A stretch of 9,452 bases of DNA from a virus. Taxonomy: Duplodnaviria; Heunggongvirae; Uroviricota; Caudoviricetes. Below, in pieces: positions 1,065 through 1,325 of the stretch; position 1 is the stretch's first letter; every line of letters starts with the position of its first letter. The notes below the pieces were generated by a model. The model ran no database searches. It was not told the DNA's origin and saw only the letters and a list, made by a program, of their open reading frames with translations. A program made the translations under genes and the position numbers. The stretch lies in IMG/VR virus record IMGVR_UViG_2711768048_000004; one strand, 5' to 3'.

Positions 1065-1325
1065 TTATAGTTGAATAAGCCACTCGATATCTGGTGCTAC
1101 GGAAGTGTCCACACGGTTTAGCAGCACCCGATACTTTTTTCAGGCTTCCAGCAACGATCTTTCTTCCTCCGTTGCGATTTCCAGATCTACAGCATCCTGC
1201 AGTGGCGCAATATACTCACTGAATTCCTGGATGTAGAACTGTGTGGTGACGGTCTTCCAGCCATTCGGCTCCTGCTGTATTGAAGCATACCAGGCTATTT
1301 CAATATCGCTATGCTGCGGCAGCAT
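1065..1325 (-). pseudogene. tfaX: Tail fibre assembly protein (lambda Tfa-like) C-terminal remnant with an in-frame TGA
   Basis: The 61 aa ORF (1140-1325) ends ...[25 protein letters not shown], matching the lambda Tfa C-terminal region. Past the TGA at 1140-1142 the same frame continues [20 protein letters not shown] to a TAA at 1065-1067; in lambda Tfa the corresponding residue is Trp ([19 protein letters not shown]). Confidence 0.6.

Follow-up and report, generated by a model that had tools for sequence, protein, structure and literature searches.

Tail-fibre assembly (Tfa) proteins are chaperones whose variable N-domain attaches to the fibre, while conserved helices at the C-terminus mediate trimerisation (PMC9608196, citing North et al. 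2019). They belong to the Pfam family Caudo_TAP (PF02413), which includes lambda Tfa (orf-194), Mu gpU and P2 gpG, and Mu gpU (5YVQ) is the only relative whose structure has been solved. A complete Tfa has two domains (about 175-200 aa) and an uninterrupted frame with a conserved Trp, and lambda-type tfa genes lie directly downstream of, and in the same orientation as, a tail-fibre gene. TfaX of Escherichia coli K-12 (b0563, TFAX_ECOLI), encoded in the DLP12 prophage, is a 61-aa product whose gene is found in the context ybcY, tfaX, appY, ompT. The proteins of phrog_2341 (88/89 aa), referred to here as mini-Tfa, share with TfaX the N-terminal leader, the central part and a divergent methyltransferase partner.

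The Q-beta A1 protein is an example of natural UGA readthrough by Trp-tRNA in E. coli. Other natural examples are nudL and rpsG (PMC10570021, PMC11126739). Reporters in K-12 show about 2-4% UGA readthrough, the outcome of a competition between Trp-tRNA and RF2 (PMC10570021); the residue inserted is mainly Trp, and the RF2 allele of K-12 is inefficient (PMC11126739). Regarding the context of the codon, a U after the stop is strongly terminating (PMC5289835).

The window, meaning the whole stretch of 9,452 nucleotides analysed here, lies at the right end of DLP12, a lambdoid prophage of E. coli. Strain FDN-24 matches it at 100% identity and K-12 strains match it at 99.8% across 93% of its length, and the gene order of the window is appY, the tfaX fragment, ybcY (frameshifted), a tail-fibre/tfa fusion remnant, ylcI, ybcW, ybcV, bor, the lysis genes, a porin gene and quuD. 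The 61-aa product is identical to the UniProt entry TFAX_ECOLI (Protein TfaX; BAE76338.1), is present on at least 1000 contigs and has the same gene context as K-12 tfaX. On the other hand, one base differs from K-12 past the stop of tfaX, which makes codon 86 Leu in the window and Pro in K-12 and most alleles, and the prophage of the window has other deletion end-points further upstream and no nohD. In RefSeq, PGAP labels positions 1066-1233 on the minus strand as 'tail fiber assembly protein; internal stop; incomplete; missing N-terminus'. Given the UniProt entry and this pseudogene label, the object and its internal stop are already on record, tfaX being a named K-12 gene and a RefSeq pseudogene with an internal stop, and for this reason the lesion in itself matters little. 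What is added here is its exact nature, a G-to-A change at window position 1140 that converts Trp62 into an opal codon, and its frequency in the population.

The gene is read on the minus strand. Its ATG (1325-1323) opens an ORF of 61 codons (1325-1143) that ends in ...EEERSLLEA and is closed by TGA at codon 62 (1140-1142); the same frame then runs on for 24 sense codons (1139-1068) up to a tandem TAA TAA (1062-1067). An in-frame TAA directly abuts the ATG, and a Shine-Dalgarno-like AAGGGG motif (1330-1335) is located 4 nt 5' of it; this motif and the start codon are kept in all aligned alleles. Codons 1-30 (1236-1325) form a leader that is not Tfa-like and is part of a conserved ybcY/mini-tfa cassette. 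Codons 31-61 (1143-1235) encode the beginning of the helical domain at the C-terminus of Tfa and make up, together with the leader, the annotated 61-aa TfaX. Past the stop, codons 63-82 (1080-1139) encode the remaining Tfa C-domain and codons 83-86 (1068-1079) a non-Tfa tail, LIQL in the window and LIQP in K-12 and most alleles. The mutated base at 1140 is A on the minus strand and T on the plus strand. The first-pass annotation, made from the letters alone, had described a tail-fibre-assembly remnant at 1065-1325 with an ORF ending in SLLEA-TGA and the same frame continuing beyond it, and translation and a base-by-base reading of the coordinates found it exact.

The assignment to the Tfa family is supported by the Caudo_TAP profile as well as by the pseudogene label. 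The 61-aa ORF scores 29.7 bits, above the gathering threshold of 22.1, and the score rises to 82.2 bits (E = 4.7e-23) for the readthrough translation. When codon 62 is read as W, the resulting 86-aa translation shares 79% identity with residues 132-187 of lambda Tfa (E = 1e-28). Codons 31-61 align to lambda Tfa 136-167, to Caudo_TAP positions 75-105 and to Mu gpU from residue 123, the alignment to Mu gpU extending over residues 123-166. Past the stop, 19 of the 20 residues encoded by codons 63-82 are identical to lambda Tfa 168-187, and the motif APDIEW is the same in the readthrough frame and in lambda Tfa, whose sequence the first-pass annotation had given correctly. Judged by sequence comparison, the homology to Tfa of the frame past the TGA is far beyond chance. 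Moreover, codons 63-82 diverge from other tfa 3' ends at third codon positions, which indicates that the segment derives from functional tfa genes. At the position of codon 62, Trp is found both in lambda Tfa (W168) and at the same site of Mu gpU (LESWERYSVL), so the stop of tfaX does stand in place of a conserved Trp.

The ancestral codon still segregates at the same locus. The alleles of A39, OkiPb01714 and BHUCD02, taken from the position beside appY and ompT, differ from the window in 2-4 of 270 bases, always including A186G, which gives TGG, and E. coli C and phage ev243 also have TGG at codon 62. Codon 62 was ancestrally TGG and became TGA by a single G-to-A transition at ORF base 186, and the point change that had been proposed from the sequence is the correct description. 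A frameshift at codon 62 was considered and rejected: the downstream Tfa homology is in the zero frame, and the slippery sequence A_AAA_AAG lies past the stop. This dnaX-type heptamer (1134-1142, minus strand) results from the lengthening of GAAAAAG to AAAAAAG by the G-to-A change; it is in the zero frame right behind the stop and directly precedes a predicted hairpin, and its presence is probably coincidental.

Of 5426 complete genomes, 612 contain the TGA version of a 41-mer centred on the codon. The first TGG 41-mer also matched paralogous tfa genes and was replaced by a flank-specific one, with which, among 803 genomes with the DLP12-type 3' flank, 191 matched TGG exactly and 610 had one mismatch, the latter being counted as consistent with TGA. 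Since many TGA carriers are laboratory derivatives of K-12, the TGA:TGG ratio overstates the natural frequency of TGA. The phages PhiR68_2 and Kati carry the TGA allele in a ybcY, tfaX, appY, ompT module and have their own full-length stf and tfa upstream. The homologues that end at this stop are only near-identical copies that share the mutation by descent (the 612 genomes and these two phages). The idea that the stop is a sequencing or assembly artefact can be dismissed, given an identical TGA 41-mer in 612 independent complete genomes and in two phage records. The BHUCD02 genome (NZ_CM183444.1; locus L011, 2336-2600) has a K-12-like size and the DLP12 layout (nohD, terminase fragment, tfaD), yet it shows TGG and S6G in tfaX, and its ybcY carries an 'internal stop' in place of the frameshift. 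Either the TGA postdates the K-12-type deletions or this assembly was reference-guided.

Apart from the stop, tfaX departs from a complete Tfa in its domains, its two ends and its genomic position. The Tfa-like part comprises only codons about 27-82 and covers Caudo_TAP positions 75-126 of 131, versus 1-130 in the full 194-aa Tfa, and the full-length neighbours additionally carry Caudo_TAP_N. In comparison with lambda Tfa, with which it has the C-terminal helical domain in common, tfaX is missing the counterpart of residues 1-131, which form the fibre-binding N-domain, as well as the final 7, so that only the C-terminal trimerisation part is retained. Its upstream neighbour is not a co-oriented tail-fibre gene but the divergent ybcY (1383-2049, plus strand), a class I SAM-dependent methyltransferase gene according to PGAP and Pfam methyltransferase domains, frameshifted here. 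The leader, before codon 27-31, gave no Pfam or lambda Tfa match and matches only phrog_2341 and phrog_3893, families without assigned function. At the other end, intact forms finish in DIEWPANPVRE or DIEWPAVPVME, and LIQL/LIQP in tfaX replaces the P-x-x-P-V-x-E ending. At codons 83-86 the GC content falls from ~0.48 to ~0.30, at the junction with the appY 'promoter island', which is AT-rich and H-NS-bound (PMC3661553, PMC4469952, PMC3946193). The non-Tfa character of the first ~30 codons, the absence of the N-domain and of the true C-terminal 7 residues, and the damage to sister alleles all go beyond what the first-pass annotation had noticed.

Concerning these sister alleles, phage Kati has a TAG at codon 33 within the TGA allele, phage 2G7b and strain 219 have frameshifts, Tfa homology is lost after codon 77 in O157:H7, just before IS66-family genes, and ev243 has an alternative junk C-terminus. 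Substitution rates point in the same direction. The dN of mini-tfa is 0.06-0.10, versus 0.01 for the adjacent methyltransferase, and between loci L008 and L020/L021 the Tfa part has a dN/dS of 0.67-0.81, with the motif-residue changes P41L, R66W and E81V. The leader gives 0.46-0.70 from 6-8 substitutions, a value compatible with weak constraint; since this estimate is underpowered, constraint on the leader was judged by comparison with the spacer and the methyltransferase. Between L008 and L021 the leader differs in 6 of 90 bases and the adjacent non-coding spacer in 4 of 56, about the same rate. A low-confidence AlphaFold2 model of the 89-aa form (12-sequence alignment) reached a mean pLDDT of 53, with 70-75 in the two C-domain helices and values below 50 in the N-terminal 35 residues.

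Regarding these data, tfaX is very probably a nonsense mutation in an already non-functional fragment, that is, an ordinary pseudogene lesion and no recoding device. The lack of function is what we infer for tfaX; the family is not uniformly dead, as the intact 89-aa form (phrog_2341) occurs in several prophage types. The ORF is a chimera in which about 30 unrelated codons of the ybcY cassette are joined to the final third of a tfa gene (lambda Tfa 132-187, the alpha-helical oligomerisation domain), and where it meets the AT-rich appY island other codons stand in place of the natural last 7 of tfa. In one allele lineage, the G-to-A change at ORF base 186 turned the TGG of Trp62 into TGA and gave rise to the annotated 61-aa ORF; this lineage comprises K-12, the strain of the window and about 610 of the 5426 complete genomes. 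Occasional reading of the UGA by Trp-tRNA would bring back the ancestral residue, and the product would be an 86-aa fragment without the fibre-binding N-domain.

The low-level readthrough that the first-pass annotation had thought conceivable is reasonable as generic background, at the level of the K-12 reporters, and nothing was found that indicates its relevance at this locus. The base after the UGA of tfaX is A, not U. With the leakiness of UGA in reporters and the inefficient RF2, this makes occasional readthrough that restores the ancestral Trp plausible, if the ORF is translated at all. The stop and the near-cognate tRNA would be the same as in Q-beta A1, nudL and rpsG; in tfaX, in contrast, the stop is recent, is not conserved and lies in a pseudogene. 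Programmed readthrough goes with a stop conserved among homologues and with a dedicated stimulatory context or structure. Here the 191 genomes that share this 3' type have TGG, as do all the more distant homologues that were examined, and the context and the structure at the stop are not of a dedicated stimulatory kind. An RNA hairpin is predicted from 5 nt past the UGA (1087-1134, minus strand), with -27.4 kcal/mol over a 101-nt stretch and z = -2.1. TGG alleles and full-length, functional tfa genes (lambda, OkiPb01714) are predicted to form this hairpin too, so it is a property of the conserved coding sequence and was rejected as a readthrough-stimulating signal. The window gave no Rfam match at gathering thresholds, and a selenocysteine UGA was rejected on this result and on the homologous residue being Trp. 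In the 3' coding region of tfa, the conserved inverted repeat TATCGGGTG...CACCxGATAT is predicted to form a 13-bp hairpin in functional and remnant genes (the window, lambda tfa and a further cassette locus, L013), with a modest z of about -2 in the window and a still weaker one in lambda tfa.

Several reports leave room for some transcription of tfaX: RNA polymerase holoenzyme binds the ybcY/tfaX spacer in genomic SELEX (PMC3946193), a biofilm study found a 2.55-fold array change of tfaX (PMC3646849), and transposon insertions in the gene showed an unvalidated Tn-seq enrichment (PMC5064937). A promoter scan of positions 900-1500 found two sigma-70-like sites, equal to the shuffle expectation of 2.0. 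The promoter proposed from SELEX (PMC3946193), ATGGCA-15-TTAAAT at 1323-1350 on the minus strand, has a -10 element that overlaps the ATG (TTAAATG); transcription from it would begin within the ORF, so that the message could not yield TfaX from this ATG.

Functional roles could be assigned to the coding sequence in more than one way. The 61-aa TfaX could itself be a functional small protein with the stop as its true end, as its UniProt entry and its presence on those contigs, its Shine-Dalgarno-like motif and ATG, and the array and Tn-seq hints (PMC3646849, PMC5064937) might suggest. This is very improbable, since its end is a recent nonsense mutation inside a Tfa C-domain helix, its abundance on contigs reflects K-12 and its relatives, Kati has the additional TAG at codon 33 within the same allele, and transcription from the SELEX-proposed promoter (PMC3946193) would exclude the start codon. 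It could also be thought that the leaky stop is tolerated or even favoured, in that it would supply a low dose of a functional mini-Tfa consisting of the C-domain only, which might co-oligomerise with the full-length Tfa of resident or incoming phages. The 2-4% readthrough of UGA in K-12, mainly with Trp (PMC10570021, PMC11126739), the inefficient RF2 (PMC11126739), an A in the place of the strongly terminating U (PMC5289835), the existence of an intact 89-aa family and the hairpin behind the stop are all in line with this proposal, but the hairpin is already there in the TGG genes and the stop is not conserved, with TGG in the 191 genomes of the same 3' type and in all the more distant homologues. 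Moreover, the 7 residues that normally form the C-terminus are absent from the DLP12 allele too, its sister alleles have been destroyed in other ways, constraint is relaxed and the region is bound by H-NS (PMC3946193, PMC3661553), so that we give this proposal hardly any probability. A broader version, in which the 89-aa mini-Tfa is a real accessory protein that interferes with or tunes fibre trimerisation of co-resident or superinfecting phages, and the TGA allele of DLP12 provides a low dose of it by readthrough, is less probable still.

A reading at the level of DNA is complementary to the pseudogene lesion and has better prospects: the fragment could persist because the conserved tfa 3' end offers a patch of homology for exchanging tail-fibre modules and the downstream ybcY/appY/ompT cargo, in which case its coding state would not matter. 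This is a tentative but serious possibility, which we hold at somewhat less than even probability. Direct repeats of tfa 3' ends bracket ybcY (1068-1235 and 2103-2171), the second of them (2103-2171, minus strand) being a repeat of the 3' part of tfaX located beyond ybcY and fused to a tail-fibre C-terminal fragment. In phage Ayreon an internal deletion of ybcY joins the two flanks, and in E. coli C the same 3' end and appY are found behind a different tail module. A sharp mosaic break is located at the Trp codon: upstream of it the DLP12, ev243 and AR_0104 alleles are ~99% identical, whereas downstream DLP12 differs from ev243 and AR_0104 at nearly every third codon position. As read from these alignments, the break is a recombination junction within conserved tfa 3' sequence. 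That lambdoid as well as P2-like prophages carry the cassette, at several sites in the chromosome, also favours such exchange, but the basis of this reading is purely comparative and it does not explain why the N-terminal leader has been retained. In line with the pseudogene reading, we infer that the fragment persists as a recombination scar and homology patch, kept through recombination between tfa 3' ends and by hitch-hiking with its neighbours ybcY and appY, and not as a gene.

The cassette itself is widespread. Sequence related to the 280-base query was found in 4104 of the 5426 genomes, and in most E. coli genomes the phrog_2341 mini-Tfa accompanies the YbcY methyltransferase. At the loci examined that have the leader, a YbcY-type methyltransferase gene adjoins it; of ybcY, phage Ayreon retains just the two ends, and in E. 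coli C both ybcY and the leader are absent. At the related cassette loci (L003-L005, L007-L010, L012, L013, L015-L018, L020, L021), an intact 222-aa ybcY stands beside mini-tfa in every case except L020, where it is broken, and ybcY is highly conserved outside the window (dN about 0.01). The cassette occurs in lambdoid prophages at several positions and in P2-like prophages at ssrA/smpB; it was also seen at appY/ompT (DLP12) and beside trpA, potB, smpB and an isocitrate-dehydrogenase gene fragment. The most complete mini-tfa is an 89-aa ORF ending in DIEWPANPVRE that matches positions 1-88 of the phrog_2341 profile at E = 4e-61. The tfaX of the window differs from it in being split by the TGA and in ending with LIQL in place of PANPVRE, so that no single ORF matches the profile from end to end, and members of the phrog_2341 family are often disrupted, the family as a whole being under relaxed constraint. 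As part of a cassette bounded by tfa 3' repeats, tfaX is a tidy example of mosaicism in the tail-fibre region. Chromosomal UGA readthrough could also be measured on it as a natural substrate, since a read-through product would regain the wild-type residue.

Some further observations concern the surroundings of the cassette. In L020 and L021, two Logan contigs (1194-3104 and 4001-4267), prophages beside the isocitrate-dehydrogenase gene fragment carry the methyltransferase/mini-tfa cassette; the gene called immediately upstream has a tail-spike N-terminal domain, no full-length tfa was called in the fetched stretch, and their mini-tfa has substitutions at conserved Tfa motif residues. In the window, a 45-aa ORF that runs antisense to ybcY at its 3' end (1993-2130, minus strand) is called 'nucleocapsid protein' in RefSeq (WP_071592174.1), which looks like a spurious gene call or name. 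A 177-aa ORF (2103-2636, minus strand) joins a tail-fibre C-terminal part (phrog_3299/6722, aa 2-158) in frame with the last 22 Tfa residues, a deletion fusion unlike the aaaD-tfaD arrangement of K-12. Next to it, a 90-aa ORF (2617-2889, minus strand) is an N-terminal fragment of a phage head maturation protease (phrog_53, E = 3e-15) and marks the other edge of a large internal prophage deletion in this strain. Finally, the nmpC-type porin gene (~6386-7483, plus strand; 7886-8983 in L001) is intact in the window, and several K-12 derivatives among the matches listed have an IS5 element in the porin region.
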